Assembly: GCA_043754535.1 (NCBI GenBank)
Contig: JAYUUN010000124.1
Span: forward strand, 6,454 to 70,453
Reading direction: 5' to 3'
DNA length: 64,000 nucleotides
From: Chloroflexota bacterium
Lineage (GTDB): Bacteria > Chloroflexota > Chloroflexia > QHBQ01
Below are positions 15,796 through 50,861 of this stretch, piece after piece. The translations under genes were made by a program, and so were the position numbers. How positions within the stretch are numbered: the first letter of the stretch is position 1; each line of letters starts with the position of its first letter. The notes beneath the pieces are model-generated. The model was not told where the DNA came from. It saw only the letters and a list, made by a program, of their open reading frames with translations, and searched no databases.

Positions 15796-15889
15796 ACAGT
15801 GGGTGACGAGTGATGTGGTGGGTGATTGGCAGTGAGCAAGGGCGGCAGCTTGTTGCTGATTACCTGCTACTGTCATAGCTAGGGAGAAG

Positions 15890-36254: not shown

Positions 36255-36300
36255 CTTCTTTCCAGCCAGCGGGGACAACAGCTTCGCCTCCAGCAGGTGA

Positions 36301-37038
36301 CTACTTCTCGAAGCGCACGGCCAGCCTACCGAGGCTGATCACATCGCCAGGGTTGAGCAGCACTAGCTGGTTGGGGGTCAGCTTCTCACGGTTGAGGTAG
36401 CTGCCGTTGACCGAGCCGAGGTCCTCTATGCTGAAGCGGTCGCCGCTCTTGTGCAGCTTGACGTGACGGCGGCTCACCCCCTTGTCCATGCCACCATGCG
36501 GGGTCATGTCCACGTCGGGGAAGGAGTTGCTCACCGGGTCTTCACGGCCAATAACCATCTCTGGCTTGCTGGGCAGCGGAATCTCTGCACTGGTATCTAC
36601 CACAACCAGGCGTGGGTTGAGCGGGGCAGTAGTGATTGGCTGCGGCTGAGGAGGCGCGGCTGGCTGTGGCTGCTGGGCGGCTTGCTGTGGCGGCGAGGAC
36701 GTTTGGGGAGGGGGAGGGGTGTAGACCGGTGCGCTGGCACTGCCTGCACTGACCGGGGTTGCCGCTGCTGTCGGTACCAGCGACGCGCCGCAGTTCTCGC
36801 AGAACACCTCACCGGGGATGTTGGTTGCGCCGCAGACCGCGCAGATCGGGCTGCCACCAGAGTTGGGGCTGGTAGCAGGCGGCGGCGGCGTAGGGGCGGC
36901 CTGCGCTACGCTGACTGGAGCGGGTTGGTTGCTGTATGGCTGGCTGGTGGGGACGGCGGCAGTACCAAGCGGGGTGCCGCACTGGTCGCAGAAATGCGCC
37001 CCGGCGGGTTGCTCGCTACCACAATTGGGGCAACGCAT
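36301..37038 (-). CDS. Double zinc-ribbon + FHA domain protein
   Basis: CPNC..FCDQCG and CAVC..FCENCG; FHA motifs IGR, GVSRRH and DLGSVNGS. Confidence 0.92.
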   Translation of the reverse strand: MRCPNCGSEQPAGAHFCDQCGTPLGTAAVPTSQPYSNQPAPVSVAQAAPTPPPPATSPNSGGSPICAVCGATNIPGEVFCENCGASLVPTAAATPVSAGSASAPVYTPPPPQTSSPPQQAAQQPQPAAPPQPQPITTAPLNPRLVVVDTSAEIPLPSKPEMVIGREDPVSNSFPDVDMTPHGGMDKGVSRRHVKLHKSGDRFSIEDLGSVNGSYLNREKLTPNQLVLLNPGDVISLGRLAVRFEK

Positions 37039-37105
37039 GGGCAGTACCCTCCTTTTGCTCTACTAATATTCCACTGGTTGGACGGCAAAGTTTAGCTTTG
37101 CGCTC

Positions 37106-37134
37106 ATTATACTTGCTAGCTCGCCCAGCGTCAA
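37106..37134 (-). promoter_or_regulatory. Putative sigma70 promoter of the FHA-amidase-GT-C-kinase-GT2 operon
   Basis: Minus strand reads TTGACG, 17 bp, TATAAT. Confidence 0.65.
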
Positions 37135-37293
37135 ACCGAGTGCTGCGTATTCACGGTTGCGCGATGCAGACAGCGAATTACGTATGCGCCGTTTGGCAAG
37201 TGGGCAGGCTGTGTGGTATCATGGACGATGAAACAACCTTGCTATAACAGACAGCAGAGCCTCAGCTTTTGCTTCAGGAGACAGGTGAGTTAG

Positions 37294-38478
37294 ATGATAG
37301 AGAGCAGCACCCCACGCCCCGACCAACCTCAAATCCGCTTCACCGGTACCGCCCGGTTGGTAATCATCGTCGCCCTGGTGATTGCCACCATCTGGTTCCT
37401 CGGCAAGCTGGGGATGGTGGTGATCCCCTTCATCCTGGCAATCCTGTTGGCCTACATCCTCAATCCTATCGTTGGCCTGCTTACTCGCCGCACGCACTGG
37501 CCGCGCCTGGTCTTCGTGGTGGGCTTCTTCGCCTTGCTCGTCGCTTTCGTCGCCTGGTTGGTCAGCATCGTGCCGCTGGCGATGCGGCAGTTTGGCGAGA
37601 TTCGCCGCAACCTGCCTGTCTACCTGGACGACTTGCGCCGCACTGCCGCTGGGTTTGGCCTGAACATAGATGAGCCGACTTATGACACCATCAAGCGCAC
37701 GGTGGTTGAGTTCAAGTTCGGGGCCGGGGCGCAGATGGCCGAGATCGCACGAGGGGCGTTCGAGTCGTTCCTGCTCACCCTTGTCTTTGTCGCCGCCAGC
37801 TTCTTCTTCCTGCTGGATGCAGAGCGGATCGGCGAACGCATCCGCAACGCCGTGCCGCGCCGCTTCCGTGCCGAGGTGCTGCCACTGATCGGGCAGATCA
37901 ACGGCACGATCAGCGGTTGGATTCGCGGCCAGCTTGTGCTGGTAGTGGTGATGAGCGTCGCCAGCTATATCGCCCTCAGCATCCTGGGCATCCACTTTGC
38001 CCTGTTCATCGCTATCGCCACTGGCTTCCTGGAAACGATCCCCTACCTCGGCCCCTACAGCGCGGGCGGCCTCGCCGTCTTTGTGGCCCTGGTGCAGCCG
38101 CAGACCAACTTTGGGTGGAGCAATGTAACGATGGCAGTCGTGGTTGCGGTCGTCTATACCACCCTGCGCCACTTGGAGGACTACCTGATTGTCCCCTACG
38201 TGATGGGCAAGTCGGTGCATCTACACCCAATGCTGGTGCTGTTCGCCGCCTTTGCGGGGTCGTCGGTAGCAGGGGTGCTGGGCCTGTTCCTGGCGGTGCC
38301 GGTGATTGCAATCGTCAAGCTAATCCTGGAGTTCGTCGTTCCCCGCCTGTTCCCGCCAGAGAGCGAGTTTGAGGTGGAGGTAGCAGCGGAGGGGCAGGCA
38401 CTGCGGGCGGCAGTGGAGCGGGCGAACGAGCCGCCCAGCAAGCCAGGCCGCTCGTTGCAGGACTCGACCGCCCAATGA
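37294..38478 (+). CDS. AI-2E family transporter
   Basis: PFILAILLAYILNP, FFFLLD, GWIRGQL, IPYLGP and P.VMGKSVHLHP. Confidence 0.92.
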   Translation: MIESSTPRPDQPQIRFTGTARLVIIVALVIATIWFLGKLGMVVIPFILAILLAYILNPIVGLLTRRTHWPRLVFVVGFFALLVAFVAWLVSIVPLAMRQFGEIRRNLPVYLDDLRRTAAGFGLNIDEPTYDTIKRTVVEFKFGAGAQMAEIARGAFESFLLTLVFVAASFFFLLDAERIGERIRNAVPRRFRAEVLPLIGQINGTISGWIRGQLVLVVVMSVASYIALSILGIHFALFIAIATGFLETIPYLGPYSAGGLAVFVALVQPQTNFGWSNVTMAVVVAVVYTTLRHLEDYLIVPYVMGKSVHLHPMLVLFAAFAGSSVAGVLGLFLAVPVIAIVKLILEFVVPRLFPPESEFEVEVAAEGQALRAAVERANEPPSKPGRSLQDSTAQ

Positions 38479-39065
38479 GCAGCTTCAACGTGCGCCCTGC
38501 CGAGGCCGACGACCTGACCGCCTGCCTGGCCCTGGACGACAGCTACAGCACCAACTGGGTCTGGCAGGTGATCGAGAGCCGCAGCGATTTGCTGCTCAGC
38601 GAACCAGGGTTGCTGGGTGAGGAGCAGCGCACCGTCAGCTTCCGCCCCACTCGCCTGCCGCGTCCGCGCCTGGTCAGCGGCAAGAGCGAAACACCCCACC
38701 GCTTGCGCGCAGCCTGGCAGCAGATCGACTTCTTTGCCATTGCCACCAGCGAGGGCAGCAACGAGGTGGTAGGCTACATCAACCTCTTTCTTGACCGCCA
38801 GCGCGAACTGGCCTGGCTAACCCAGGTAGCGGTCGCTGAGGGCTGGCGGCGGCAGCGGGTGGGGGCAACTCTGCTGGAAGCGGCCAAAGAGTGGGCGCGG
38901 CTAGCAGCCCAGCGGTCGATCCTCACTGAACTGACGACTGCCAACTACCCCGCTAGTCGCTTCCTGCAAAGTCAGGGCTTCACCTTCTGCGGCTACAACG
39001 ATGCCTTTGATCCAGCGGGGGAGATGACCTTCTTCTACAACTACCCGCTGGCCCAAAATCGCTGA
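38475..39065 (+). CDS. GNAT N-acetyltransferase
   Basis: VAVAEGWRRQRVGATLL (acetyl-CoA motif A) and NYPASRFLQSQGF. Confidence 0.85.
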   Translation: MSSFNVRPAEADDLTACLALDDSYSTNWVWQVIESRSDLLLSEPGLLGEEQRTVSFRPTRLPRPRLVSGKSETPHRLRAAWQQIDFFAIATSEGSNEVVGYINLFLDRQRELAWLTQVAVAEGWRRQRVGATLLEAAKEWARLAAQRSILTELTTANYPASRFLQSQGFTFCGYNDAFDPAGEMTFFYNYPLAQNR

Positions 39066-39069
39066 TACC

Positions 39070-39078
39070 TGTTATAAT
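39070..39078 (+). promoter_or_regulatory. Extended -10 promoter element
   Basis: TGTTATAAT about 30 bp upstream of ATG 39108, which has a GGAGGG RBS. Confidence 0.5.
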
Positions 39079-39107
39079 GTGTCTATCTTGCCAGAGATGG
39101 AGGGCTG

Positions 39108-39575
39108 ATGAGCGAACCAGCGGTGGGCCGGGCCAGCAGCGTACTGCTGGGGATCGTGGAGGCGGCGCGCACTCTGCTGCCAGAGCAGTGGCAAGGCTTC
39201 AGCATCGGTGGACGGGCTAACCTGGTGCAGATGTACTTCGAGCCAAACGAGCTTGGCCGCAAGGTGCATTTCGAGGTCTGGCAGCGGCGCGGCTACCTGG
39301 AGGTCGGGTTGCACTTCGAGGCCGAGGCGGGCGCAAACGAGTTCCTCTTTAGCAGCTTTCAACAACGCCAGCCCGCTATTGATGCCGCCCTCAACGTCGA
39401 AGCCAGCCAGCCGCTGGTACGCGTTGCGCGGTGGGACAAGGGTTGGGCGCGAGTGCATTGCGAGATGCCAACCCAGGGTGTGCGCGCCGTAGCCCGTGAG
39501 GCCAACGCTGTCGCCCACCGCCTGGCCGCAATGATCGCCACCCTGCAACCGATGTACGACGAGATCATGAGCTGA
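39108..39575 (+). CDS. Hypothetical protein
   Basis: 155-aa ORF with RBS and normal codon style; HFEVW..LEVGLHFE motif; no family recognised. Confidence 0.7.
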   Translation: MSEPAVGRASSVLLGIVEAARTLLPEQWQGFSIGGRANLVQMYFEPNELGRKVHFEVWQRRGYLEVGLHFEAEAGANEFLFSSFQQRQPAIDAALNVEASQPLVRVARWDKGWARVHCEMPTQGVRAVAREANAVAHRLAAMIATLQPMYDEIMS

Positions 39576-39584
39576 GGAGCAACG

Positions 39585-40661
39585 ATGCTGCCAGAGCTAT
39601 ACCCCCTCAAACTGCAAGCGATCTACAAGCCGACGATCTGGGGCGGCCACAACCTGGCCGCCCTCAAGCCCGACCTGCCAGCCACACAACTGATCGGCGA
39701 GAGTTGGGAGGCTTACGACGACTGCCTGATCCAGAACGGCACACTGACGGGGCGCAGCCTGCACCAGGCGGTGGCAGCCTGGGGCCGCCTGCTAGTTGGC
39801 ACTGCTAGCCCGACCGCCGACCACTTCCCCTTGCTGACCAAGTTTATTGATGCGAACGACAACCTCAGCGTGCAACTGCACCCTAACAACGAGCAGGCGC
39901 AGGAGTTGGAGGGCTATTGGTGCGGCAAGACGGAGATGTGGTACGTGATTGGGGCGGCTGAAGGCGCGAAGGTGATCCTCGGTACTGCCGCCAACGAGGA
40001 CCATGCGCTGATCCGCCAGCGCATCGGTGAGGGGAGGTTGGAGGAGAACTTGCAGTGGCTGGCGGTCAGCGCAGGTGATGTGGTCTACGTCCCCGCTGGG
40101 CGCGTCCACGCCCTCGGTCGCGGCCTGCTGGTTTACGAGGTGCAGCAGAACAGCGACCATACTTATCGCCTCTACGATTGGCACCGCCTGGACGCAGCGG
40201 GCAAGGGCCGCGAGTTGCACGTAGAGAAGGGGCTGCGCGTGCTGCGCTTTGAGCAACCCGCCCCCGGCAAGCTGACCCCCCTGCGGCTGGCGATTGGCAG
40301 CCACAGCGTCAGCCACCTGAAGGTCAGTCCCTACTTTGCGGTTAGCCTGATCGAGGCCGACGGCGGCGAAGTGGGCAGCGAGAGCAACGGCGGTAGCTTC
40401 ACCCTCTATACTGTGCTAGAGGGGGGGGGGCAACTGCGCTGGCAAGGGAACACAGACGAGCTTGACTTGCACCAGGGCGACACTGTGATCGTCCCAGCAG
40501 GACTAGCCAGCCACCTGATCCTCGCCAACGGCCCGCTAAAGCTGATCTGCACGACATTGCCCCTGCCCGCCGACCAACTAGCCACCCTCGTCGTCCAACC
40601 CCTCGCCAAAGCGGGCTACTCTGCCACCCAGATCGCGCAACTGCTGGCAGCGGAGCTTTGA
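39585..40661 (+). CDS. manA: Mannose-6-phosphate isomerase, class I
   Basis: IWGG, GESWE, KFIDA.DNLSVQLHP, GKTEMWY, VPAGRVHA and EVQQNSD.TYRLYD. Confidence 0.92.
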   Translation: MLPELYPLKLQAIYKPTIWGGHNLAALKPDLPATQLIGESWEAYDDCLIQNGTLTGRSLHQAVAAWGRLLVGTASPTADHFPLLTKFIDANDNLSVQLHPNNEQAQELEGYWCGKTEMWYVIGAAEGAKVILGTAANEDHALIRQRIGEGRLEENLQWLAVSAGDVVYVPAGRVHALGRGLLVYEVQQNSDHTYRLYDWHRLDAAGKGRELHVEKGLRVLRFEQPAPGKLTPLRLAIGSHSVSHLKVSPYFAVSLIEADGGEVGSESNGGSFTLYTVLEGGGQLRWQGNTDELDLHQGDTVIVPAGLASHLILANGPLKLICTTLPLPADQLATLVVQPLAKAGYSATQIAQLLAAEL

Positions 40662-40900: not shown

Positions 40901-40929
40901 TTGACAAGGCGGCAGGCGGTGACTATAAT
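40901..40929 (+). promoter_or_regulatory. Perfect-consensus sigma70 promoter of the GT-C/GT2/wecB/csaB operon
   Basis: TTGACA (40901-06), 17 bp, TATAAT (40924-29). Confidence 0.85.
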
Positions 40930-41002
40930 AGGCCGCGTTGGGCCGAAGCTCCCGCCTAGAGCATGACTACTGAAGAAGGGAGATTTTGGAGCGGAGGGAA
41001 GC

Positions 41003-43354
41003 GTGGCAGCATTTAGCATCAAAGTAACGCTGGAATGGCTGGTTTTGTGCGGCGGACTTGCGCTTGCTCTGTTGATCCCCGGTTACACCCTGCTGCTCTA
41101 CCTCAAGTGGCTGCATAATTCGCTGGCCGACACCGCCAGCCGGGTGATCGCCGCCCTCAGCCTTAGCATCCTCGCCACCCCGCTCGTCTTCCTCGTCGCC
41201 CATCTGCTGCACCTGCCCCTGGGTACACGCAGCCTGCTAGCCCTGCTCTCCCTATCGCTGGTCGCCCTCTGGCTGAAGCTAGCAGAGCGCAGGCAACCAG
41301 CTAGCAGGCTAGAGGCAACGCCCATCGCCAGCCGCTCAAGCCTGCTAGCTAGCTTGCAGGACGCTCTGGCCCGCTTGCAATGGGCAAACCTGGCCCTGCT
41401 CGGCATCTTCCTGGCGGGCCTCAGCGTGCGGGTGGCCCAGGGCTGGGGCGAACCAGCAGCCCTCGGCTCCGACGCTTACCACCACACCCTAATCAGCCAA
41501 CTGGTGATCGATAACGCGGGCATCCCCAACAACTATCTGCCCTACGCCCCCCTCGGCTCGTTTACCTACCACTATGCTTTCCACGCGTTGGTGGCGGTCA
41601 GCTATTGGCTGGGCGGGGCGATGGCGTTCGGGGCCGGGCCGCTGACGACGGCAAAGCTGACCTTGATGGTTGGGCAGGTGTTGAGCGCGTTTGCGCCGCT
41701 CATCGCCTACCTGCTGGCCCGCCACTTTACGGGCAGCGCGAAGGTTGGCCTGGTTGCCGCGCTAATCCCGGCGGTGATCGAAATCTTTCCCAGCTACTAC
41801 ATCAACTGGGGCCGCGACACGCAGATGGTCGGCCTACTCGGTCTGCCCCTGGTAATGATCGCTACTGAGCGTGCGCTCAATAACAGAATCTACCTGGTGC
41901 TGTATGCCAACTCTGGACCAGTAGAAGGTGCGCGGCTGGTTAGCGCGATCCGCAGGCGGCGTAGCCCTCTCATGTCGGTGACTAGCTTCTTGCGCCACGC
42001 TGAAGTCAGGGCCGTGATCATCACTGGTACGCTGGCCGCTGGCCTCTTTCTCGCCCACTACCGCATTATCATCCTATTCTACTTCTTCCTCGGCCTCTAC
42101 ACCCTGGTTAAGGTGGTCAAAGTGCTGACTAGCAGGCGGCAGGCAGTGGATGCGGACGTGAGACTGGCAGAGCCGCCATTTTTGCAGAAGCAGACGAAGA
42201 AGGCAAGGATCAGCAGGCTCCTACTCAAGGTGGTAGGTATCGGCATTGTCAACCTGATTGTGGTTTCGCCCTGGCTGTTCAACCTGCTAGCGGGCTTCAG
42301 CTTCACCCTCGCGCCGAAGGGTGGGCAGGTGGCGCAGAGCTTCTTCAGCACGCGCTTGAGTGATATCGTGAGCAACTGGTGGTTCGATAAGCCACTGACG
42401 GCCTGGCTGCCCAGCACCGCTGCGCCGGACGGCAGGCCGCTACCGCCGCTGCTGAGTAACTGGTTCATCACCAGCCCCATCGTGCTGCTTGCGGCGGCGG
42501 GCTGGCTATCTGGTATAATTAGGCGGCAAGGCTACGTGATCGCTGTCGGCCTCTGGGCGGCTATTAGCCTCGCGCTCTCCAACCCTTACTGGTTGCCAAT
42601 CCCACTGGTCAGTGGTAAGGTGGACTACCAGACAGTGGTTAGCGCGTTCTGGCTGCCTGCCAGTCTGCTGATCGGCTACCTGGCCGTAACGATCCTGGAG
42701 GCGCGGATTTGGCACCGGCAAGGTGATGGGCAACCGCCCCAGGCTAGTTGGCCTTTGCAAGCGAAACTGACGACTGCCGCCCTGCTCGTTGGGCTGGCCT
42801 TCTATGCCGGTGGCGCACTGGCCCCCCAGCGGGAGGATGATCGGCTGGAAGCCTACCTGCAAGGGGGCGACATCAAGGCACTGACCTGGCTGAAGGGGCA
42901 GGCGATCCCAGCAGGTACCCTCTTTCTAGTCAACACCTTCACCTACCCCTGGTCGCCAAACTCGCGCACTGGCAGCGACGGCGGTTTGTGGCTGCCGCTA
43001 CTCACCCAGCGCGGCTGGCAAACGACCGCGCCCCCACTGCCCTACAACAACGAGGTGGCGTTGGACAAGGATTATCGAGCCAAGATTATTGATCTATCGA
43101 TCCTGGCGACGCAAGCCGACAACCCAAACGCCGTCGCCCGGCTGAAGCAAGCTGGAGTGCGCTACGCCTACGTTGGGGCGCGCAGCGTGCAGCTTGGTAC
43201 CAGCGGCCTGAGCGAAAAGCCAGAGCTGGCGCAGTATCGTAAGAAGAACCTGCATATCGGCGGCACCCTGGATCATGTTCAGTTCGACAAAGCACCCCAG
43301 CTTTGGGAGAAGATATATAATGAAGATGACATCTATATCTATGCCCTCAAGTAA
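41003..43354 (+). CDS. GT-C-type integral membrane glycosyltransferase (putative)
   Basis: About 14 TM helices; LGSDAYHH loop, FTYHYAFH, PSYYINWGR and LAHYR; soluble C-terminal domain (DGGLWLP...YAYVG); GGAGGG RBS. Confidence 0.7.
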   Translation: MAAFSIKVTLEWLVLCGGLALALLIPGYTLLLYLKWLHNSLADTASRVIAALSLSILATPLVFLVAHLLHLPLGTRSLLALLSLSLVALWLKLAERRQPASRLEATPIASRSSLLASLQDALARLQWANLALLGIFLAGLSVRVAQGWGEPAALGSDAYHHTLISQLVIDNAGIPNNYLPYAPLGSFTYHYAFHALVAVSYWLGGAMAFGAGPLTTAKLTLMVGQVLSAFAPLIAYLLARHFTGSAKVGLVAALIPAVIEIFPSYYINWGRDTQMVGLLGLPLVMIATERALNNRIYLVLYANSGPVEGARLVSAIRRRRSPLMSVTSFLRHAEVRAVIITGTLAAGLFLAHYRIIILFYFFLGLYTLVKVVKVLTSRRQAVDADVRLAEPPFLQKQTKKARISRLLLKVVGIGIVNLIVVSPWLFNLLAGFSFTLAPKGGQVAQSFFSTRLSDIVSNWWFDKPLTAWLPSTAAPDGRPLPPLLSNWFITSPIVLLAAAGWLSGIIRRQGYVIAVGLWAAISLALSNPYWLPIPLVSGKVDYQTVVSAFWLPASLLIGYLAVTILEARIWHRQGDGQPPQASWPLQAKLTTAALLVGLAFYAGGALAPQREDDRLEAYLQGGDIKALTWLKGQAIPAGTLFLVNTFTYPWSPNSRTGSDGGLWLPLLTQRGWQTTAPPLPYNNEVALDKDYRAKIIDLSILATQADNPNAVARLKQAGVRYAYVGARSVQLGTSGLSEKPELAQYRKKNLHIGGTLDHVQFDKAPQLWEKIYNEDDIYIYALK

Positions 43355-43364
43355 AGAAGTGTCT

Positions 43365-44183
43365 ATGGCAATGGCAGCCTCTAGCCAGCTAGCACCTGCG
43401 CTGGCCGAACCGGTAGCGGCGGGCGCGGATCGCTCACCCTTCCCGCCGCCGAGCGTGCCAGCCCAGGGTATCCCCATCGCTGCCAGCCCAGCCCTGCGCG
43501 GCCAGCTAGTATCGGTGATCATCCCGGTCTATAATGAAGAAGCACACGTGGGCGAGGTGCTGCGCCGCATCCTGGCGGTAGACTTCACGAAGGAGTTGGT
43601 GGTGGTGGACGACGGTTCGACCGACGGCACCCGCGCTATCCTTGCCCAGTGGGAGAGACATCCCGACGTGCGGATCATCTACGCGCCGCAGAACAGAGGC
43701 AAGGGGACAGCGATCCGCCTCGGCCTGCGAGAGATAGTGGGCGAGATCGTGGTCGTCCATGATGCTGACCTGGAATATGACTCGCGGGAGATGCTGCCGA
43801 TGCTAGAACTGATCGCCCAGGGGCGGGCCGACGTGGTGTACGGCAGCCGCTTCCTGGGCAGTGTGCGGGGGATGAAGTTCCAGAATTGGGTGGCGAACCG
43901 CCTGCTAGCCATCAGCGCAAACCTGCTGTTCCGGGCCAACATTACCGACGAGGCTACGGCCTACAAGGCGTTCCGCACAGCGATCCTCCGCACGATCAAG
44001 CTGAACTGCACCCGCTTCGAGTTCTGTCCAGAGGTGACAGCGAAGGTACGCAAGAAGGGCTACAAGATAGTTGAAGTACCAATCCACTACGAAGGGCGCA
44101 CGGCATTGCAGGGCAAGAAAATCAAGCTGAGCGACGGCTTCGAGGCGTTCTGGACGCTGCTCAAGTATCGGTTTAGGGACTGA
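43365..44183 (+). CDS. GT2 polyprenol-phosphate glycosyltransferase (DPM synthase-like)
   Basis: SVIIPVYNE, VDDGSTDGT, NRGKG, HDADLEY, DVVYGSRF, FEFCPE and EVPIHY..R...GKKI. Confidence 0.9.
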   Translation: MAMAASSQLAPALAEPVAAGADRSPFPPPSVPAQGIPIAASPALRGQLVSVIIPVYNEEAHVGEVLRRILAVDFTKELVVVDDGSTDGTRAILAQWERHPDVRIIYAPQNRGKGTAIRLGLREIVGEIVVVHDADLEYDSREMLPMLELIAQGRADVVYGSRFLGSVRGMKFQNWVANRLLAISANLLFRANITDEATAYKAFRTAILRTIKLNCTRFEFCPEVTAKVRKKGYKIVEVPIHYEGRTALQGKKIKLSDGFEAFWTLLKYRFRD

Positions 44184-44205
44184 GGCGCAGCAGCAAAGGA
44201 GCTTA

Positions 44206-45324
44206 ATGAAACCACTAACGATCATCATGGGGACAAAGGGTGAGTACGTCAAGATGGCTCCTGTCTTGCGCGAGCTTGACCGCCAGCAGGTGCCGTACCG
44301 CCTGCTACACACCCGCCAGCACAGCCACACCACCGATGTGATCACCAATATTTTTGCTCTGCGCCAACCGGATGTGCTGCTGGATCAGCGCACTGTTGAC
44401 GTAACCAACGTGCGCGACGCGGCACAGTGGTTCCTCAAGGGCTGTTGGCACGCTCTCCGCAAGCGCAGGGCGTACTTCCCCGCTGGCAAGGGCATCGTAT
44501 TGCTGCATGGTGACACGCCTTCGACCCTGCTAGGGCTGATCATCGGCAAGCTGGGCGGGCAGGCCGTTGCTCATGTGGAGGCGGGCCTACGCAGCTACGA
44601 CCTGCTCAACCCCTTCCCAGAGGAGTTGGTACGGATCATCACCAGCCGCTTCGCCCGCTACCTGTTCGCCCCCGCCGACTGGGAGTACAGCAACCTGGTG
44701 AAGGAGAAGCTGGCAGGCCGCAAGTGGAACACCAGGGTGAACACGGTCTACGAAGCTCTCACCTACGCCCTGATCCGTTACAAGCAGAAGCACGCCGACG
44801 GCAACAGCGATCTCAGCACGCCGCCTGATCAGCCCTACGTCGTCGCGGTCGTCCACCGATTGGAGAGTATCCTCAATCAAGAGCGGCTGAAGTTCGACAT
44901 TGAGGTGATCTTGCGCGTTGCCGAACAACACCACGTCGTCTTCATCCAGTACAAGCCCACGATGGAGAAGCTGGCCGCCTACGGGATGCTGGACAAGTTG
45001 CTCAACCACCCAAACATCGAGCATCGTGGCTACCAGGACTACTTCAGCTTCATGAACCTGATCGCCAACTGCACCTATGTGGTCTGCGACGGTGGCGGCT
45101 TGCAAGAGGAGACCTACTATCTGGATCGACCCTGCCTGCTGCTGCGCAGCGCAACCGAGCGGATCATCGGCCTGGACGAGACAGCCCTGCTCAGTAAGTT
45201 TGAGCCAGCCCGCATCAACTACTTCCTCGCCAACTACCAGCAGTACCATCGCCGCGACGACCTGGAGGCAGCCCGCCCCGCCCAGGTGATCGTAGATGCG
45301 ATGCGCGAGTTGATGGCCGAGTGA
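44206..45324 (+). CDS. wecB: UDP-N-acetylglucosamine 2-epimerase (non-hydrolysing, divergent)
   Basis: GTKGEYVKMAP, HGDT, HVEAGLRS, PFPEE, HRLE, DGGGLQEE and PCLLLR..TER. Confidence 0.85.
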   Translation: MKPLTIIMGTKGEYVKMAPVLRELDRQQVPYRLLHTRQHSHTTDVITNIFALRQPDVLLDQRTVDVTNVRDAAQWFLKGCWHALRKRRAYFPAGKGIVLLHGDTPSTLLGLIIGKLGGQAVAHVEAGLRSYDLLNPFPEELVRIITSRFARYLFAPADWEYSNLVKEKLAGRKWNTRVNTVYEALTYALIRYKQKHADGNSDLSTPPDQPYVVAVVHRLESILNQERLKFDIEVILRVAEQHHVVFIQYKPTMEKLAAYGMLDKLLNHPNIEHRGYQDYFSFMNLIANCTYVVCDGGGLQEETYYLDRPCLLLRSATERIIGLDETALLSKFEPARINYFLANYQQYHRRDDLEAARPAQVIVDAMRELMAE

Positions 45325-46607
45325 AGCACAGTCCCCCCCCCGCTTCCCCTAGTGAGAAGGGCGGAAGCCTGCTACTCTCTGGCTGGTACGGCGGCGGCAA
45401 TGTAGGGGACGAAGCGATCCTCGCTGCTCTCTTGCAGATGGTGCGCGACGAGCGGCCCGACCTGGCGGTGGCTGCGCTGTCGGTTGATCCTGGCTATACG
45501 GCGGCGGCACACGATGTGAGGGCGATCCCGCGCCAACCGCTGGCGGCCCTGCTGGCAATACGCCGCTGCACTGGCTTTGCCCTCGGCGGCGGCGGCACGG
45601 TGCAGGACGTGACCAGCGTCTACAACCTGCCCTCCTTCCTCATCTACCCCTTGCTAGCGAAGCGGCTGGGCAAACGCGTGGTTTGGAGCGGGGTGGGGGT
45701 TGGGCCACTGCGTACGCGGCTGGGGCGGCGGTTGGCCTGGCTAGCTGGGCAGCAGGCCGACGCGATCAGCGTGCGCGACGAGGCTTCCGCCACCTTGCTG
45801 CGTGGGATTGGGGTGGCAGCGGCAAAGGTGCGGGTGACGGCAGACCCGGCCCTGCACCTTCGCCCACAAACCGGACCTGGCGTGCTGAAGCTAATCGCTA
45901 ACAGCGGTATACATAGAGGTGGTGCAGAGTCGGACGGCCTGGATGCACTCCACGTGACCCAACCCGGCTCCGTACTAGAAGGTAGGAGGCCCCTGGTCGT
46001 CTTTGCAGTGCGCCGCCCGCTCGATCCTGCGTTGCACGGCCTGCGCCCTGGCTACCTCCTGCCAGTCAGCCTGCGCGAACGCTTCCACAGTTGGTCGGCG
46101 GCGGGCCAAAAATTGTATACGGAGACAACGGCGAAGCTAGCCCAACTAGCCGACTACTGGGCGGGGCTGGGAGCGGATGTCCTCTTTATCCCCTTTGACC
46201 CGGTAGACGCATTGGTGAATGCTGCGGTGATCGCCCAGATGCGCCAACCGGGTGCCGCCCACCAGCTAGCCGGGCGGCACCATCCGGCGGTAGTGATGGG
46301 GGTGGTCAACAGGGCAGATGTAGTGGTGGCGATGCGCCTGCACGCGCTGATCTTCGCGGCAGCCTGCGGCAAGCCAGCCCTGGCAGTTAGCTACGACCGC
46401 AAGGTGAGCAGCTTCATGGCGCAGGTGGGGCTAGCCAACTACTGCCACCCGCTGCAAGGTGGCGACCTGCGGGGAGCAGCGGCAGACCTTTGGCAGAACC
46501 GTGATATAATAGCAGCCACCTTGGGGGCGCGAGTAGAGAGCTTGAAAGGGAGAGCGGTTGAGAACAGCACCATCCTCATCGGAGCAGCCGACGGTAGCAG
46601 GGCTTAA
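45321..46607 (+). CDS. csaB: Polysaccharide pyruvyl transferase CsaB
   Basis: SGWYGGGNVGDEAIL, GGGGTVQDVTS, GVGVGPL, ISVRDEAS, TADPA, AMRLHALIFA and SYDRKV. Confidence 0.9.
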   Translation: MKHSPPPASPSEKGGSLLLSGWYGGGNVGDEAILAALLQMVRDERPDLAVAALSVDPGYTAAAHDVRAIPRQPLAALLAIRRCTGFALGGGGTVQDVTSVYNLPSFLIYPLLAKRLGKRVVWSGVGVGPLRTRLGRRLAWLAGQQADAISVRDEASATLLRGIGVAAAKVRVTADPALHLRPQTGPGVLKLIANSGIHRGGAESDGLDALHVTQPGSVLEGRRPLVVFAVRRPLDPALHGLRPGYLLPVSLRERFHSWSAAGQKLYTETTAKLAQLADYWAGLGADVLFIPFDPVDALVNAAVIAQMRQPGAAHQLAGRHHPAVVMGVVNRADVVVAMRLHALIFAAACGKPALAVSYDRKVSSFMAQVGLANYCHPLQGGDLRGAAADLWQNRDIIAATLGARVESLKGRAVENSTILIGAADGSRA

Positions 46608-47571
46608 GCCGAGTCGCCTGCGCCGGGTTCTGGCCTGGGTACGCAGCGCACGAGGGCGCACCATCTTGCAGATCACCCTGATCGCCCTCGTTCTCGTCGC
46701 GTTCGTCTGGCAGCTAGCGGGCAATTGGGCTGACCTATCGCGGCTGCAACTGCGGCTAGACTATAGCTACCTCGCTCTATCGGCGATCCCGCTGTTCGGC
46801 AGGCCGTTCCTCTCAGCCTTCGGCTGGTGGCAGGTGGTACGAAAGCTGAAGGGGGAGCTGGGGATCGCCAGCGCGATCCACATCTACTTCATCTCCGGGC
46901 TGGCCCGCTACGTGCCTGGCCCCTTCCTCGGCAGCATTGGGCGGGCCTTGATGGCCGAAGAAGCGGGCGTGCCAGCAGTTACTGCTACCCTCAGCGTGCT
47001 GATCGAACTAGGGCTGCTGGTTGCCAGCGGGGTGATCCTGGGGGCGATCTGGACTGTGCTACACCTCTCCAACGACCAGGTGATCTACATGGTGCTGCTC
47101 GGCATCTTCAGCCTGATCCTGCTCAACCCCCGCTTCTTCTTGCCACTGCTCAATCGACTACTGGGCCGCTTCAAGCGTAAGCCCATTGCGCTGAACCTGC
47201 ACCTTGGTGATATGTTGCAACTACTTGCCCCTTACCTGCTCAACTGGATGCTCAATGGCCTGACCTTCTACCTCGTGCTTAAGGCGATCTCGCCGCTGGG
47301 GTATGACCTGTTCAACATCATGGGCATCTACATCGTCGCCCTGACGGTGGCGATCTTCGGCCTGATTACACCCGACGGCTGGGGCGCTCGCGAACTGGCG
47401 TTGGGCAATATGCTGGTCAGCTTTGCAGCGATCCCAGCAGTGCTAGCGACCGGGCTGGCAATCTTCACCCGCGTCTGGTGGATGGTCAGCGAAGCAGCAT
47501 GGGTCGGCCTCGCGCTGTTGCTTGGTCGTGGCAGGCAGGCGGCAACGCCGCCACTGGATGAGCAGAAGTAA
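46558..47571 (+). CDS. Lysylphosphatidylglycerol-synthase-TM / UPF0104 flippase-like membrane protein
   Basis: About 8 TM helices; ARYVPG, PDGWGARE and TRVWW (cf. PxGxGxRE...RL). Confidence 0.8.
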   Translation: MRTAPSSSEQPTVAGLKPSRLRRVLAWVRSARGRTILQITLIALVLVAFVWQLAGNWADLSRLQLRLDYSYLALSAIPLFGRPFLSAFGWWQVVRKLKGELGIASAIHIYFISGLARYVPGPFLGSIGRALMAEEAGVPAVTATLSVLIELGLLVASGVILGAIWTVLHLSNDQVIYMVLLGIFSLILLNPRFFLPLLNRLLGRFKRKPIALNLHLGDMLQLLAPYLLNWMLNGLTFYLVLKAISPLGYDLFNIMGIYIVALTVAIFGLITPDGWGARELALGNMLVSFAAIPAVLATGLAIFTRVWWMVSEAAWVGLALLLGRGRQAATPPLDEQK

Positions 47572-47672
47572 CAGGTAGCCTTCTGCTACGTTGCATAGCA
47601 TGATGCATAGTTTGGGCTGCTTAGCGGGTGCCATTGAGGATAAGCGCAACCTTGAAAAGCGGGCAGCATTAT

Positions 47673-47701
47673 TTGACAAAATCCTAAGGCGGTGTTATGA
47701 T
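47673..47701 (+). promoter_or_regulatory. Strong sigma70 promoter of the SLH surface-protein gene
   Basis: TTGACA (47673-78), 17 bp, TATGAT (47696-701) with extended TG. Confidence 0.75.
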
Positions 47702-47856
47702 CCGCTCTACCTTCTAGAGGATAGAGGGTCGCACGAACGTATCAACCGCCAGCCAGCCAACGCTCGTCCCGGCTGCTGGTGGAGAGCGGGCTAGCCAAAG
47801 GCAGAAGAGACTGGCTGGACCACCGTCAAGGGACGAGTGAAGAGAAAGGTTGAGAG

Positions 47857-50772
47857 ATGAGGAACAAGAGAGTACAGAGTTTCGTAGCTCTGGGTTTGAC
47901 CGCGCTGCTGCTGATCATGACGCTGGGGCAGTCCCTGACGACCAGCGCAAGGAGCTTGACCGCTGCGCCTGCCAGCCAAGCGGTGAATGGCAACTCGGCT
48001 GATGCTGACAAGGCACCAGCTGGTGCCGTGCAAGCACCGGCAGTTGACACCTCGAAGGGCTATGCTCCGCACACCCCACTGGTAGAAGACCCTGGCCCGT
48101 GGAGCAACGGCACAACTGGCCCTGCTGCACGTTACCGCTTTGGCTCCGCTTCTGACGGCGTGCGCTATATCTATGTCTACGGTGGTGGTGATGGTGCTGG
48201 GGCGATCAACACCCTCTGGCGTTGGGACTCGACCAACGGCACCTGGACGCAGCTTGCCAATATGCCCACTGCCAAGCAGAACGTGCAGGGCGCATACTAC
48301 AACGGCAAGATTTACGTGCCAGGCGGCTATACTGGTGCTGCCCACATCAACGAGAATGCGATCTACGACGTCGCTACTAATGTTTGGACAACTGGCACAG
48401 CTCAGACGGTAGCGCAGAGTGGGACGACCGCTGCGTACAATGGCAACATCTACGTCTTCGGCGGTAATCCTGGGCCTAGCAATACAACCCTGATCTACAG
48501 CACCACGGCCAATACCTGGACGGCAGGGGCGAATCTGCCCGTCGCTATCACATACGGACGCGCAGTTGTTGCTGGGAGCTACATTTACTATGCAGGCGGC
48601 ATCGCTGCTGGCACTAGTGCCGGCGCACTCTATCGCTATGATCCTGCTGCCAACACCTGGACGACGCTTGCGGCGATGCAGACTGCGCGGAGCAGCGAAG
48701 AACTGATCGCATCACCCACTGGCAGTAAGCTCTACGCCATCGGTGGCGCAACCGGTACTACCTTCTTCAGTGGCTTGCCCCTCTCCCAAACGGTTGAAGT
48801 ATACGACGTTACCGCCAACACCTGGTCCTATGGCTCTCCGCTCGTCACTACTGCTTCTGGGGTTGGTGGTGGACGTGTAGGCAACAACCTGATGATCCTG
48901 GGTGGCGTTGACGGTACTACCTACTTTAACAACGTACAGGTGTCAACTGTCACTGGTGGCTCAACCGCAACCAGCACCCCGGTGCCGCCGACTGCAACCA
49001 GTACCCCTGCAGGCCCAACTGTGACCGCGACCGCGACCCGCACCGCCACAGCGGTACCAACGGCATCGCTGACCGCGATCCCTGTTAGTTCGACTAACTG
49101 GAGTGCCTTGCCTGCCCTACCCAGCGAGCGGTTCCGCCTGGCGGCTGGTGCAGCCAACAACCGCGTCTATGCCTTCGCTGGCCGTCCGAACAACACTATC
49201 TACCTGACCAGCATCGTCTCGATCAACCCTTACACCGGCACGGCCTGGATCACGGAGACGGCCACCTTCCCAACCGCGCGCACCGCTAACCTGCAATCTG
49301 CCACCTTGACCGAAACCAGTGGCACCTACGTCTATCTGGTGGGTGGCTCTGGTGCCGCCTCCGACCTCAGCGGCACCAGCACCGTCTACCGCTTCGACCC
49401 GACCAGCAGCACCATAACCGTCCTCAGCGACTCGCTGCCACTCACCAACACGACTGGCCTCGGCTCGGCGGTACTCAACAACAAGTGGTACATCTTCGGT
49501 GGCTTCACCCCACCGACTAACACCCTCTCTGCCCAGACCTACGTGTTCGACCCCAATGGCACCCCTGGCAGCAAGTGGAGTCGGATCAGCAGTGCTGACC
49601 TCAGCATCGCGCGCACCTACATCGCTGGCACCGCCTTCGATGGTCGCGTCTACGCCATCGGAGGGGCCAACTTCGTAGGGGTAAGCCTCAACGACCTGAA
49701 CATTGTCGAAGTAATGACTCCAACCGACACTACCCCGACCTGGCGGCGCATTGCTGACCTGCCCGTGGGCCTGAGCAACAATCAGGCTTACAGTTGGAAC
49801 ACCAACAGTGGCTACCCGAACGCTGGGCGCGCTGTCGTCTGCGGCGGTGGCTTTGTCACCATCGGCCAGGAGTGCTACCAGTACATCCCCAGCGCAGACC
49901 GCTGGCAGAGCTTCCCATCGCTGCTCAACATCAAGCGCAACTTCGGTAAGGCGCAGATGAACGGCTACTGGTACGCTATCGGTGGCACTGAGGACGGCAC
50001 AGTTGGTAGCACCGATGCGGAGACCAACCCGGCTGCCAACTCGCTGCCAACCCCGACCGCAACCACCCCGGCTAGCACAGCCACTTCTACCGCTACTGCC
50101 ACGCTTACGGCCACCGCCACCCTTACGGCCACCGCTACCTCTACCGCTACTGCCATCCTCACCTCTACCGCCACTGCCACCGCCTGCTCGATCACCTTCA
50201 GTGACGTACCGACGAGCAACCTGTTCTACGGTGACATCCAGTACCTGGCCTGCCGCAACATCGTCAATGGTGCGAATGGCCTGTTCCGGCCCAACGCCAA
50301 CGCCACTCGCGGTGAGTTTGCCAAGATCGCCGTCCTGGGCTTTGGCCTCGCTCCCTTCACCCCCGCCAGCGGCCAGACCTTCGTAGACGTAGCTCCTGGC
50401 AGCGTGTTCTTCGGCTTCATCGAAGCTGCCGCTCGTGCTGGGGTCGTCAACGGCCTCTCGGCTGCCCAGTGCGCTGCCCTCGGCACGCCCGGCACCTGCT
50501 ACGGCCCCAACGTGCAGATCAGCCGCGTACAGGTAGCTGTGATCGTGCAGCGGGCAAAGGGTTACGCCCTGGTTACGCCAACTGTCGCCACCTTCCGCGA
50601 CGTGCCAGTGGGTGCCTTTGGCTTCCAAGCCATTGAGACCTTGGCCTCACGCAACATCATCAACGGTGCAACCTGCGTCACTGGCGGCGGCATCTGCTTC
50701 CGTCCGAACGACAACATCAAGCGCGGTGAACTGAGCAAGGTTGTGCGCCGCGCCATCGAATCGGCCCCGTAG
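47857..50772 (+). CDS. Secreted surface protein: two Kelch beta-propellers, Thr/Ala-rich linkers, three C-terminal SLH repeats
   Basis: Signal peptide; Kelch repeats (IYVYGG, IYVPGG, IYVFGG, LYAIGG...W); TAT linkers; SLH repeats FSDVP..FRPNANATRGEF, FVDVAP..PNVQISRVQ and FRDVP..FRPNDNIKRGEL. Confidence 0.92.
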   Translation: MRNKRVQSFVALGLTALLLIMTLGQSLTTSARSLTAAPASQAVNGNSADADKAPAGAVQAPAVDTSKGYAPHTPLVEDPGPWSNGTTGPAARYRFGSASDGVRYIYVYGGGDGAGAINTLWRWDSTNGTWTQLANMPTAKQNVQGAYYNGKIYVPGGYTGAAHINENAIYDVATNVWTTGTAQTVAQSGTTAAYNGNIYVFGGNPGPSNTTLIYSTTANTWTAGANLPVAITYGRAVVAGSYIYYAGGIAAGTSAGALYRYDPAANTWTTLAAMQTARSSEELIASPTGSKLYAIGGATGTTFFSGLPLSQTVEVYDVTANTWSYGSPLVTTASGVGGGRVGNNLMILGGVDGTTYFNNVQVSTVTGGSTATSTPVPPTATSTPAGPTVTATATRTATAVPTASLTAIPVSSTNWSALPALPSERFRLAAGAANNRVYAFAGRPNNTIYLTSIVSINPYTGTAWITETATFPTARTANLQSATLTETSGTYVYLVGGSGAASDLSGTSTVYRFDPTSSTITVLSDSLPLTNTTGLGSAVLNNKWYIFGGFTPPTNTLSAQTYVFDPNGTPGSKWSRISSADLSIARTYIAGTAFDGRVYAIGGANFVGVSLNDLNIVEVMTPTDTTPTWRRIADLPVGLSNNQAYSWNTNSGYPNAGRAVVCGGGFVTIGQECYQYIPSADRWQSFPSLLNIKRNFGKAQMNGYWYAIGGTEDGTVGSTDAETNPAANSLPTPTATTPASTATSTATATLTATATLTATATSTATAILTSTATATACSITFSDVPTSNLFYGDIQYLACRNIVNGANGLFRPNANATRGEFAKIAVLGFGLAPFTPASGQTFVDVAPGSVFFGFIEAAARAGVVNGLSAAQCAALGTPGTCYGPNVQISRVQVAVIVQRAKGYALVTPTVATFRDVPVGAFGFQAIETLASRNIINGATCVTGGGICFRPNDNIKRGELSKVVRRAIESAP
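50080..50181 (+). repeat. 18-bp degenerate tandem repeats encoding the ATxTAT linker
   Basis: GCCACTTCTACCGCTACT / GCCACGCTTACGGCCACC / GCCACCCTTACGGCCACC / GCTACCTCTACCGCTACT... Confidence 0.8.
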
Positions 50773-50825
50773 TAGCCACCACCTTGCGGCCTGCGGAGCA
50801 ATCCACAAGCCGCAACCCACAAAGC

Positions 50826-50861
50826 AGCCCCGCCAGCTTCGGCTAGCGGGGCTATCTTTTT
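50826..50861 (+). terminator. Intrinsic terminator of the SLH gene
   Basis: AGCCCCGCCAGC-TTCG-GCTAGCGGGGCT followed by ATCTTTTT. A second hairpin, TTGCGGC...GCCGCAA (50784-815), precedes it. Confidence 0.85.

Follow-up and report, generated by a model that had tools for sequence, protein, structure and literature searches.

How might a member of the Chloroflexota make the ligand of its SLH proteins? Binding of SLH domains to pyruvylated wall polymers is among the oldest protein-anchoring systems in the Terrabacteria, and to our knowledge the biosynthesis of the pyruvylated ligand is known from Firmicutes only. The question is raised by a locus of an uncultured Chloroflexia bacterium (Chloroflexota; QHBQ01; GCA_043754535.1), in which a csaB-type gene lies in a compact operon next to a gene for an SLH protein. 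The window, meaning the whole stretch of DNA analysed, comprises 64,000 nucleotides (contig JAYUUN010000124.1, below C124, positions 6,454 to 70,453, forward strand; assembly 88.9% complete), and the part studied here spans its positions 40,901 to 50,861. The genome contains 90 ORFs with SLH domains, and every one of the order's 21 genomes is SLH-rich and CsaB-positive, in contrast to the loss of SLH and CsaB in the Chloroflexi clade that is described in the part of a phylum-wide survey available to us (bioRxiv 10.1101/2021.05.31.446380). In a phylum sample of 251 Chloroflexota genomes SLH domains were found in seven, six of which also contain PS_pyruv_trans; the co-occurrence of CsaB-type and SLH proteins expected for this system is thus seen.

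The ORF list, Pfam searches and a promoter scan recovered every feature of the initial annotation in its place, and gene order, spacing and promoters bear out its tight five-gene operon followed by an SLH Kelch gene with its own promoter, all on the forward strand. The operon is preceded by a sigma-70-type promoter (TTGACA-17-TATAAT, 40901..40929) that matches the consensus at 12 of 12 positions, and its genes encode a GT-C-fold membrane glycosyltransferase of 783 residues (41003..43354), a GT2 enzyme of the polyprenol-phosphate type lacking an evident membrane anchor (43275..44183), a divergent Epimerase_2 (WecB-like) paralogue (44206..45324), a CsaB-type ketal-pyruvyltransferase (45321..46607) and a membrane protein resembling the MprF flippase domain (LPG_synthase_TM/UPF0104, 46558..47571). 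The true start of the GT2 gene is probably 43365 or 43371, just 3' of the GT-C stop codon, and from the GT2 gene onward neighbouring genes are separated by +22, -4 and -50 nt. The 12/12 hexamers are repeated 5' of the orthologous GT-C gene in two related genomes (G001 and G004) and are absent there in a third (G003, best match 8/12). A mannose-6-phosphate isomerase gene is found just upstream of the operon, outside it and 5' of its promoter. The region holds seven promoter-like sites, compared to 2.4 +/- 1.4 in shuffled sequences. One of them (TTGACA-17-TATGAT with an extended -10 TG, 11/12 consensus match, 47673..47701), which is kept in G001, precedes the gene for a secreted Kelch beta-propeller protein (47857..50772; Kelch_1 1.3e-46, SLH 9.7e-16), and 3' of this gene lies a terminator-like hairpin (50835..50853, consensus match only). 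The Kelch protein has an N-terminal hydrophobic segment (residues 6-24), a linker rich in Thr, Ala, Ser and Pro (88% T/S/A/P over 50 residues) and three C-terminal SLH repeats as detected with an SLH HMM derived from the genome. The motifs of these repeats are TRGE, SRVQ and KRGE, in which the pyruvate-binding Arg of SLH domains is kept (compared with PMC6081394).

What does the first gene of the operon encode? Its product matched no Pfam family, its single sequence retrieved nothing useful among solved structures (best E 0.74) and a 70-sequence profile retrieved AftA only, marginally (E 2.5e-4), so that a fold search was needed. With the AF2 model (pLDDT 84, pTM 0.90) all 29 Foldseek matches at E<=1e-3 were GT-C enzymes, and the VIA Z scores were 20.5 for STT3 (8agb_A; rmsd 4.6, 475 residues aligned), 17.3 for ArnT, 16.4 for PglB and AftA and 14.8 for Pmt4, at a sequence identity to the oligosaccharyltransferases STT3, AglB and PglB of 11-14%. 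The suspected GT-C fold is thus confirmed at the level of the model, and with it membership in the GT-C glycosyltransferase superfamily, a lipid-phosphate-sugar as donor being predicted only. More precisely, a core of 13 helices is preceded in the model by three additional N-terminal helices and followed by a C-terminal globular domain, of which residues 617-783 match the C-terminal domain of AglB (Z 9.4). Invariant in the 70 aligned sequences are D157, H161, H190, H194, R271 and H352. D157 lies within the motif DSYHH just after core helix 127-147 and would be the conserved acidic residue expected in the first extracytoplasmic loop of GT-C enzymes, with the membrane side assigned from the fold match only. 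Oligosaccharyltransferases carry a WWDYG-type motif where their C-terminal domain starts. No conserved motif of this type was found in the sequence, the model or the alignment; the sole WW, that of WWFD near residue 459, falls within a loop whose pLDDT is below 50, and the WWFD positions are not listed among the invariant or nearly invariant alignment columns. The family, which is DUF6541-like and comprises 1492 representative clusters, is generic: at 80 loci with a homologue a GT2 gene lies within 8 kb in 31 cases and CsaB nearby in only four.

The GT2 protein (PF00535, 1.1e-31) aligned with the solved structures of Dol-P-Man synthase (DPMS 5mlz, 3.5e-20) over residues 75-282 and of ArnC (about 1e-13) over residues 78-276, whereas matches to other, ordinary GT2 enzymes are limited to the N-terminal half, about residues 70-190. 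Judged by these alignments it resembles polyprenol-phosphate glycosyltransferases across the whole catalytic domain, the acceptor half included. The best NCBIfam matches, each below its cut-off, were AglJ, Dol-P-hexose transferase, ArnC and PpgS, and a hydrophobicity scan found no hydrophobic segment. In G003 the GT-C and GT2 genes form one frame of 1010 residues; a fusion protein was set aside as an explanation, since that assembly is fragmented and since the C-terminal domain of the GT-C protein should be extracellular but the GT2 intracellular.

The third gene had been taken to encode a UDP-GlcNAc 2-epimerase. Its place in the Epimerase_2 family stands (PF02350, 6.7e-48, 163.7 bits), but against the equivalog model TIGR00236 it reaches 176 bits, under the cut-off of 210.15, which makes its substrate uncertain. 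Since a canonical WecB (333.7 bits against the same model, 28% identical to the operon epimerase) is encoded on contig C71, the operon enzyme is an extra, dedicated copy, and the idea that it is the main WecB of the genome supplying TagA was rejected. Within the operon its gene is also the best conserved, with 80% identity to G003 and G004, that is between genera. Similarly, the CsaB assignment holds for the PS_pyruv_trans family (PF04230, 4.9e-35; 122 bits, cut-off 25.3) and narrowly misses the TIGR03609 equivalog (202.4 bits, cut-off 213.1); a sequence search against solved structures gave no matches. The protein is the sole PS_pyruv_trans in the assembly. A second csaB is present in the related genomes G001 to G004, behind two GT4-like genes, one of which is 56-59% identical (tblastn) to the csaB-adjacent GT4 of family f2. 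In a CsaB tree the operon proteins form a clade (100/99) outside the clade (83/91) that unites the second CsaB of family f1 with those of f2 and f3; two rows that are long and perhaps badly delimited (f3_G006 and out_G155) were given no weight. From its sequence, the operon CsaB is therefore a divergent paralogue distinct from the order-wide csaB, and its identification as the csaB of the order was rejected. That the operon has a divergent epimerase and CsaB paralogue of its own would fit a self-contained pathway.

The last protein of the operon belongs to the MprF flippase domain family (PF03706, 5.1e-15; 56.2 bits, gathering threshold 33.4), flipping activity being predicted only, and is one of seven LPG_synthase_TM members in the genome. 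A fusion of a GT2 enzyme with a flippase is known in archaeal AglD; a search for longer, fused LPG_synthase_TM forms gave one uninformative match among 8000 scored candidates. On contig C113 a GT-C paralogue is followed directly by an LPG_synthase_TM paralogue and then by an SLH amidase, in the same order as in the operon, an arrangement kept in G001 and G002 and, up to the contig end, in G003. The operon in the window looks as if such a pair had taken up the genes of three cytoplasmic enzymes between its members.

How widespread is the operon? Conservation, which the initial annotation had made decisive for its proposal, was found in part. Identical gene order is present at all three further loci of the same family (G001, G003, G004; two genera, 43-98% identity) and is not found at 13 csaB loci of two SLH-rich sister families; the operon is confined to one family. 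At these 13 loci the operon-type GT-C and the operon-type epimerase are absent throughout and any GT-C occurs once, LPG_synthase_TM is present at 11, and GT4-family enzymes are present at both loci scanned for them. The order-wide csaB module reads LPG_synthase_TM, GT4, GT4, CsaB, with a GT2 gene nearby. In family f1 the operon and this module coexist, and the GT4-GT4-csaB arrangement is absent from the assembly containing the window and present in sister genomes. SLH-richness is independent of the operon, since it is shared by each of the 21 genomes in the order, those of the sister families included. A general Chloroflexota solution is not borne out either: csaB in the sister families has other partners, and two further SLH-bearing Chloroflexota have classical loci, G155 with adjacent TagA, CsaB, WecB and LCP genes beside an SLH gene and G042 with a WecB-Wzx-CsaB-GT4-Wzy_C locus.

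It had also been proposed that the ligand is made without the machinery of the Firmicutes, as no tagO, tagA or LCP gene lies in the window. This is true for all of C124, yet the wider claim fails, because other contigs of the same genome encode TagA (PF03808, 2.8e-55, best match TarA; C11), two WecA/TagO-like enzymes, one LCP ligase (C85), three Wzx proteins and the canonical WecB, besides GT4-family genes on C84, C73 and C21, and because TagA is present in all 21 relatives. By sequence criteria all components of the classical SLH-anchoring pathway (TagO, TagA, CsaB, MnaA and LCP) are encoded in the genome, where, by contig position, csaB is not clustered with tagA and tagO. Tracking of CsaB by TagA was rejected across the 251 Chloroflexota genomes, TagA being present in 24 of 37 CsaB-positive genomes against 173 of 251 overall and missing in three of the six positive for both SLH and CsaB, so that the phyletic pattern does not discriminate between models.

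How could the five proteins work together? We favour, at somewhat less than even confidence, a single self-contained and family-specific pathway that operates beside the classical wall-polymer machinery and not in its place, and for which we infer every substrate and every reaction. The divergent epimerase would supply a 2-epimerised UDP-HexNAc, most simply UDP-ManNAc, and on the cytoplasmic side of the membrane the apparently anchor-less GT2 enzyme, like Dol-P-Man synthase or ArnC, would couple this sugar to polyprenol monophosphate. The CsaB paralogue might then use PEP to form a 4,6-ketal pyruvate on the lipid-linked sugar, which the MprF-flippase-like protein would carry across the membrane. 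Finally, the OST/ArnT-like GT-C enzyme would hand the pyruvylated sugar to a wall polymer, whose assembly and attachment are probably the work of WecA, TagA and LCP, and a pyruvylated epitope would thereby be created or added for roughly 90 SLH proteins. Several observations argue for such a self-contained pathway: the gene families, their tight packing and the conserved perfect promoter; the GT-C fold and the full-domain match of the GT2 enzyme to DPMS and ArnC; the same order of the five genes in G001, G003 and G004, with epimerase and CsaB as extra paralogues; the recurrence of the GT-C and LPG_synthase_TM pair and of GT2 genes near GT-C homologues (31/80); and the 90 SLH ORFs together with the co-occurrence of SLH and PS_pyruv_trans in six of seven genomes.

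Other observations argue against it. We know of no polyprenol-P-ManNAc synthase, and the epimerase stays below its equivalog cut-off. Moreover, two successive inverting steps, by the GT2 and then by the GT-C enzyme, would yield an alpha-linked sugar, and the known SLH ligand is beta-ManNAc, so the linkage predicted for the pathway does not agree with it. GT4-family enzymes normally act on PP-linked glycans, and the csaB loci of the sister families combine these enzymes (at the two scanned) and LPG_synthase_TM (11/13) with no operon-type epimerase (0/13). In addition, the GT-C family is generic and only rarely near CsaB (4/80), and the SLH-richness of the order does not hinge on the operon. The only characterised CsaB, that of P. 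alvei, is active, in the part of the report available to us, on lipid-PP-GlcNAc-ManNAc, which this genome can make by TagA, WecA-like enzyme, WecB and LCP, and not on UDP-ManNAc or pNP-beta-ManNAc, a monophosphate-linked monosaccharide not being among the substrates described there as tried (PMC6030368).

The main rival of the self-contained pathway is an account that we regard as somewhat less probable. On the cytoplasmic side the operon CsaB would pyruvylate a PP-linked glycan, which could be Und-PP-GlcNAc-ManNAc from TagA or a GT4-built unit, the epimerase would add UDP-ManNAc, and the GT2, flippase-like and GT-C proteins would be an ordinary three-component system adding another single sugar to the same polymer outside. 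This agrees with the classical genes elsewhere in the genome (TagA, WecA-like, LCP, Wzx and canonical WecB) and with TagA in all 21 relatives, with the adjacent TagA, CsaB, WecB and LCP genes beside an SLH gene in G155, with a GT-C family usually found without CsaB and often with GT2, and with the PP-linked substrate in what could be consulted of the P. alvei study (PMC6030368). It does not account for the position of epimerase and CsaB inside the unit that runs from the GT-C to the flippase-like gene, with which they are co-inherited, nor for the presence of both as extra paralogues, given a canonical WecB encoded elsewhere and, likewise elsewhere, the order-wide csaB of sister genomes, and TagA does not track CsaB.

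Alternatively, though this is improbable, the operon could replace Wzx and Wzy, the flippase-like protein flipping a PP-linked pyruvylated repeat unit, the GT-C enzyme polymerising it or transferring it en bloc and the GT2 working on the lipid-linked unit in the manner of an ordinary glycosyltransferase. STT3, AglB and PglB as best fold matches, AglB-like C-terminal domain included, would suit this role, as would the same logic in classical parts at the G042 locus and LPG_synthase_TM as the neighbour of csaB at 11 of the 13 loci from the sister families, the place expected for Wzx. However, the acceptor half of the GT2 enzyme is like that of polyprenol-monophosphate enzymes and unlike that of oligosaccharide-acting ones, the GT-C enzyme lacks a detectable conserved WWDYG-type motif, and the Z scores of ArnT (17.3) and AftA (16.4), both users of monophosphate donors, are almost equally high. 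Finally, it is about as improbable that, by analogy to Ppm1 and Pmt in Actinobacteria and the Pgf system in streptococci, the GT2, flippase-like and GT-C proteins O-glycosylate the Thr/Ser/Ala/Pro-rich linkers of SLH proteins with epimerase and CsaB working apart from them, for the wall polymer: an SLH gene directly after both GT-C/flippase-like pairs of the genome, the composition of the Kelch linker, Pmt4 among the fold matches (Z 14.8) and Dol-P-Man synthase as best solved GT2 match next to a mannose-6-phosphate isomerase gene would be in line with it, but the GT-C family with its 1492 representatives is far commoner than SLH (7/251 genomes), the isomerase gene lies outside the operon, and no reason is given for epimerase and CsaB inside the unit.

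The self-contained pathway can be put in a stronger form, which we offer tentatively and as doubtful in its entirety. In this form, a route to the SLH ligand by way of lipid monophosphate would have arisen within the family. It would include the first polyprenol-P-ManNAc synthase, and its CsaB paralogue would pyruvylate a lone sugar on the lipid. The MprF-type flippase would carry a glycolipid instead of an aminoacyl-phospholipid, and an OST-like GT-C enzyme of an unstudied family would install pyruvyl-ManNAc on the outer side, the prediction being an alpha-linked branch. If true, SLH anchoring epitopes could join a finished wall polymer after export. The operon is a compact five-gene candidate for such post-export installation and hints at functions of two large families that are unstudied, the DUF6541-like GT-C enzymes and the stand-alone MprF-flippase-like proteins. 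Should the self-contained pathway prove wrong, the locus remains a clear example of a three-component glycosylation module joined to a classical cassette for pyruvylation.

How does the operon compare to known systems? With the SCWP locus of Paenibacillus alvei (csaB-tagA-tagO, MnaA) and csaAB of Bacillus anthracis it shares CsaB-type and 2-epimerase-family genes beside SLH genes, a flippase candidate by csaB, and TagA, TagO-like and LCP proteins in the genome. It differs in that tagA and tagO lie outside the operon, an MprF-type protein takes the place of Wzx or CsaA as flippase candidate, a polyprenol-P-type GT2 and a GT-C gene are in the predicted operon of csaB, and CsaB and epimerase are extra paralogues. 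Three-component systems for extracytoplasmic glycosylation are ArnC/ArnEF/ArnT, GtrA/B/V, CsbB/GtcA/YfhO, GacI/J/K/L and PpgS/Rv3779, whose members ArnC, GtrB and ArnT were matched by operon proteins. Here as there a polyprenol-P GT2, a flippase candidate, a GT-C and a nucleotide-sugar enzyme are encoded together, but the flippase candidate is a PF03706 protein and not GtrA, SMR-like or Wzx, a pyruvyltransferase is inserted in the module, and the GT-C enzyme is of an uncharacterised DUF6541-like family with three extra N-terminal helices. To STT3, AglB and PglB the GT-C enzyme is similar in fold over about 475 residues and in its AglB-like C-terminal globular domain, whereas no conserved WWDYG-type motif was found in it and the GT2 beside it suggests a monophosphate-linked monosaccharide as donor. 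The order-wide csaB module has the same pairing of CsaB and LPG_synthase_TM in SLH-rich genomes, but with GT4 enzymes, no epimerase, a GT-C at one of 13 loci and a CsaB of the other clade.

Six genes on the + strand of the stretch make up the locus, and ORF calls with a Pfam scan assign families to five of them. The first gene, for a putative GT-C glycosyltransferase (41003-43354), is followed by Glycos_transf_2 (GT2; 43275-44183, 1.1e-31), Epimerase_2 (44206-45324, 6.7e-48), PS_pyruv_trans (CsaB; 45321-46607, 4.9e-35) and LPG_synthase_TM (46558-47571, 5.1e-15, 56 bits against a cut-off of 33.4), and then by a gene for a protein with at least six Kelch repeats and SLH (47857-50772). ATG codons at 43365 and 43371 for the start of the GT2 both lie 3' of the GT-C stop, with the Pfam domain beginning at residue 80, and the later operon junctions of +22, -4 and -50 nt indicate close packing. 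A promoter scan found TTGACA-17-TATAAT (12/12, 40901-40929) and TTGACA-17-TATGAT (11/12 with TG, 47673-47701); the region contains 7 promoter-like sites, compared with 2.4 ± 1.4 in shuffled sequence, and perfect 12/12 hexamers also stand 5' of the orthologous first gene in the related genomes G001 and G004 and not in G003. Among NCBIfam models, the operon CsaB scores just below threshold for TIGR03609 (202.4, cut-off 213.1) and the epimerase below that for wecB (TIGR00236, 176, cut-off 210.15). The feature is real, the locus is well defined, and the gene calls of the initial annotation were right. Upstream of the operon (35466-40661) lie genes for an Amidase_3 cell-wall amidase, an FHA/zinc-ribbon protein, an AI-2E transporter, a GNAT acetyltransferase and, immediately 5' of the operon promoter, a type I mannose-6-phosphate isomerase. 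Some 25 kb upstream (8920-18727) a 2291-aa protein combining PMT/PMT_2 (GT-C), DUF2298 and TPR repeats is encoded, with a 945-aa DUF2298 protein next after it, both being large membrane glycosyltransferase-like genes. Sequence near-identical to 40901-48900 (0.80-0.89 of sampled words) occurs in glacier, freshwater and other metagenome runs of six studies, not counting the probable source study.

How might the five operon genes act together? The GT2 is of the polyprenol-phosphate type, judged by its sequence: among solved structures, Dol-P-Man synthase of P. furiosus (3.5e-20, residues 75-282) and ArnC (about 1e-13, residues 78-276) match it over the whole catalytic domain and other GT2 enzymes over the nucleotide-binding half only. 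Its best NCBIfam matches are AglJ, Dol-P-hexose transferase, ArnC and PpgS, each under its cut-off, and a hydrophobicity scan found no membrane segment in it. In G003, a fragmented MAG, GT-C and GT2 share one open frame of 1010 aa (L032, 2053-5085), which may reflect gene fusion or may have arisen in assembly. There is good support for the gene families and for the three-component logic of polyprenol-P GT2, flippase candidate and GT-C. The mechanism originally proposed, in which UDP-ManNAc is loaded on polyprenol-P, pyruvylated, flipped and transferred by the GT-C, is plausible but unproven. We tentatively favour, in essence, this self-contained lipid-monophosphate pathway, but added to the classical wall-polymer machinery, because both an additional epimerase and an additional CsaB lie inside the unit from GT-C to flippase-like gene and are co-inherited with it. 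If both transfers are inverting, this pathway would, from what is generally known of GT2 and GT-C enzymes, yield alpha-linked pyruvyl-ManNAc. The five genes offer a direct experimental test of the mechanism.

The comparison covered 20 csaB loci from 17 published relatives (three operon-type, 13 from two SLH-rich sister families of the same order, f2 and f3, and four second copies). All three operon-type loci, which belong to the same family (f1) as the window's genome, keep the five genes in the same order, with identities of 93-98% in G001 and 43-80% in G003 and G004 (epimerase 80%). Within the fetched stretches of the 13 sister-family loci, LPG_synthase_TM is found in 11, GT2 in 9, GT-C in 1 and the operon-type epimerase in none, and in the two of these that were scanned, L036 and L039, GT4-family glycosyltransferases lie between LPG_synthase_TM and csaB. 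The reach of the operon is a single family and not the phylum. Operon-type GT-C orthologues (>40% identity) are found on three named contigs only among 185,579 species genomes. The remaining four loci, L050, L035, L049 and L034 of G001 to G004, respectively, hold second csaB copies, each preceded by a pair of GT4-like genes, of which one shares 56-59% identity with the GT4 of the sister families (tblastn), a layout common to f1 genomes and sister families. None of these three genes is present in the assembly of the window's genome (3.87 Mb, 132 contigs, 88.9% complete), perhaps because they were lost or escaped assembly. In a maximum likelihood tree of 30 rows, of which two long ones are unreliable, the operon CsaB copies form their own clade (100/99) outside the clade of the second f1 copies and both sister families (83/91). 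The csaB-adjacent GT2 of f2 has its 62% match in the window's genome on contig C71, not in the operon.

The main rival reading, somewhat less likely in our view, is that CsaB works on a PP-linked glycan, which in the available text of PMC6030368 is the sole substrate shown for any CsaB. In the window's assembly there are one LCP gene (LytR_cpsA_psr and LytR_C), one TagA/WecG gene with TarA as top NCBIfam match, three Wzx-type flippases and three Glycos_transf_4 genes, two of them WecA-like and one of these adjoining a gene for a 1204-aa Wzy_C/TPR protein. Contig C71 carries a canonical WecB (PF02350, 363 bits; TIGR00236, 333.7 bits) to which the operon epimerase is only 28% identical. TagA is present in 21/21 genomes of the order and in 173 of the 251 genomes sampled from Chloroflexota. 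Since the genome carries these parts, and its relatives TagA, the absence of Firmicutes machinery noted in the initial annotation applies to the window alone, and the idea that the operon replaces this machinery was wrong.

The first operon gene encodes a GT-C enzyme, judged by the modelled fold of its 783-aa product. Pfam assigns this protein to no family, and sequence comparison with solved structures gave no useful match; it is rich in hydrophobic segments and has a soluble tail of roughly 170 aa. The GT-C call passed the AlphaFold fold test proposed for it: 29/29 Foldseek matches at E<=1e-3 to the AlphaFold2 model (pLDDT 84, pTM 0.90) are GT-C enzymes, and VIA-align superimposes 475 residues on yeast STT3 (Z 20.5, rmsd 4.6), with Z scores of 19.4 for AglB, 17.3 for ArnT and 16.4 each for PglB and AftA. 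Residues 617-783 match the C-terminal globular domain of AglB (Z 9.4, VIA-align), and residues 1-112 are modelled as three additional helices ahead of the core. That the enzyme acts as an OST-like en bloc transferase or as a polymerase is improbable; no conserved WWDYG-type motif was found in its sequence. Invariant across a 70-member alignment are D157, H161, P180, Y189, H190, H194, R271 and H352. A full HMMER scan yielded 1492 representative clusters of homologues at E<=1e-3, and among 10 homologues scanned, four match DUF6541 and two DUF1616. At 80 homologue loci, the neighbours within 8 kb include GT2 in 31, LPG_synthase_TM in 9, CsaB in 4 and the operon-type epimerase in 2; by these counts the GT-C family is generic, its tie to CsaB being specific to this small clade. 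The window's genome has three GT-C paralogues and seven LPG_synthase_TM genes, and the pairing of GT-C with a flippase-like gene recurs in it. On contig C113 (L151, 4736-12020) a cyclophilin-domain protein gene is followed by a GT-C paralogue, LPG_synthase_TM and an SLH amidase (Amidase_2, Golvesin_C and three SLH); all four are retained in G001 and the last three in G002, and in G003 the contig stops after the GT-C/LPG_synthase_TM pair. On contig C88 a polyprenol-P-type GT2 lies immediately 5' of another LPG_synthase_TM.

The Kelch protein has a hydrophobic segment at its N terminus, a linker composed to 88% of Thr, Ser, Ala and Pro, and three SLH repeats, detected with an HMM made from SLH segments of the same genome. 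O-glycosylation of such SLH-protein linkers as the role of the operon is improbable. The SLH motifs TRGE, SRVQ and KRGE retain Gly and Arg, which in SpaA of P. alvei bind pyruvyl-ManNAc, according to the available text of PMC6081394. SLH repeats 2 and 3 (about 50190-50770) each contain a cysteine pair in the loop ahead of the conserved Arg motif.

The closest named relatives of the window's genome, which itself has 90 SLH ORFs (78 with three repeats), are uncultured Chloroflexia MAGs. Many SLH domains and CsaB-like genes occur in every one of the 21 genomes of this Chloroflexia order (18/18 each without three unpublished genomes). In the 251-genome phylum sample PS_pyruv_trans is found in 37 genomes and SLH (E<=1e-6) in 7, six of which have PS_pyruv_trans, and SLH in 0/28 other Chloroflexia. 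The order is an exception to the loss of SLH/CsaB in the Chloroflexi clade reported in the available text of a published survey (bioRxiv 10.1101/2021.05.31.446380). In an SLH-rich complete genome, PS_pyruv_trans lies inside a 1452-aa open frame (G264:C1:1118923-1119831), possibly a fused pyruvyltransferase-polymerase. Elsewhere in the phylum, G042 (L148) has an SLH protein, GT4, WecB, Wzx, CsaB, GT4 and Wzy_C, with no TagA found in this genome by the TagA search of the phylum sample, and G155 (L132) has, side by side, a Bac_transf initiating enzyme, TagA, CsaB, WecB, LCP and an SLH protein. By their gene content, both loci are classical SLH-ligand layouts.
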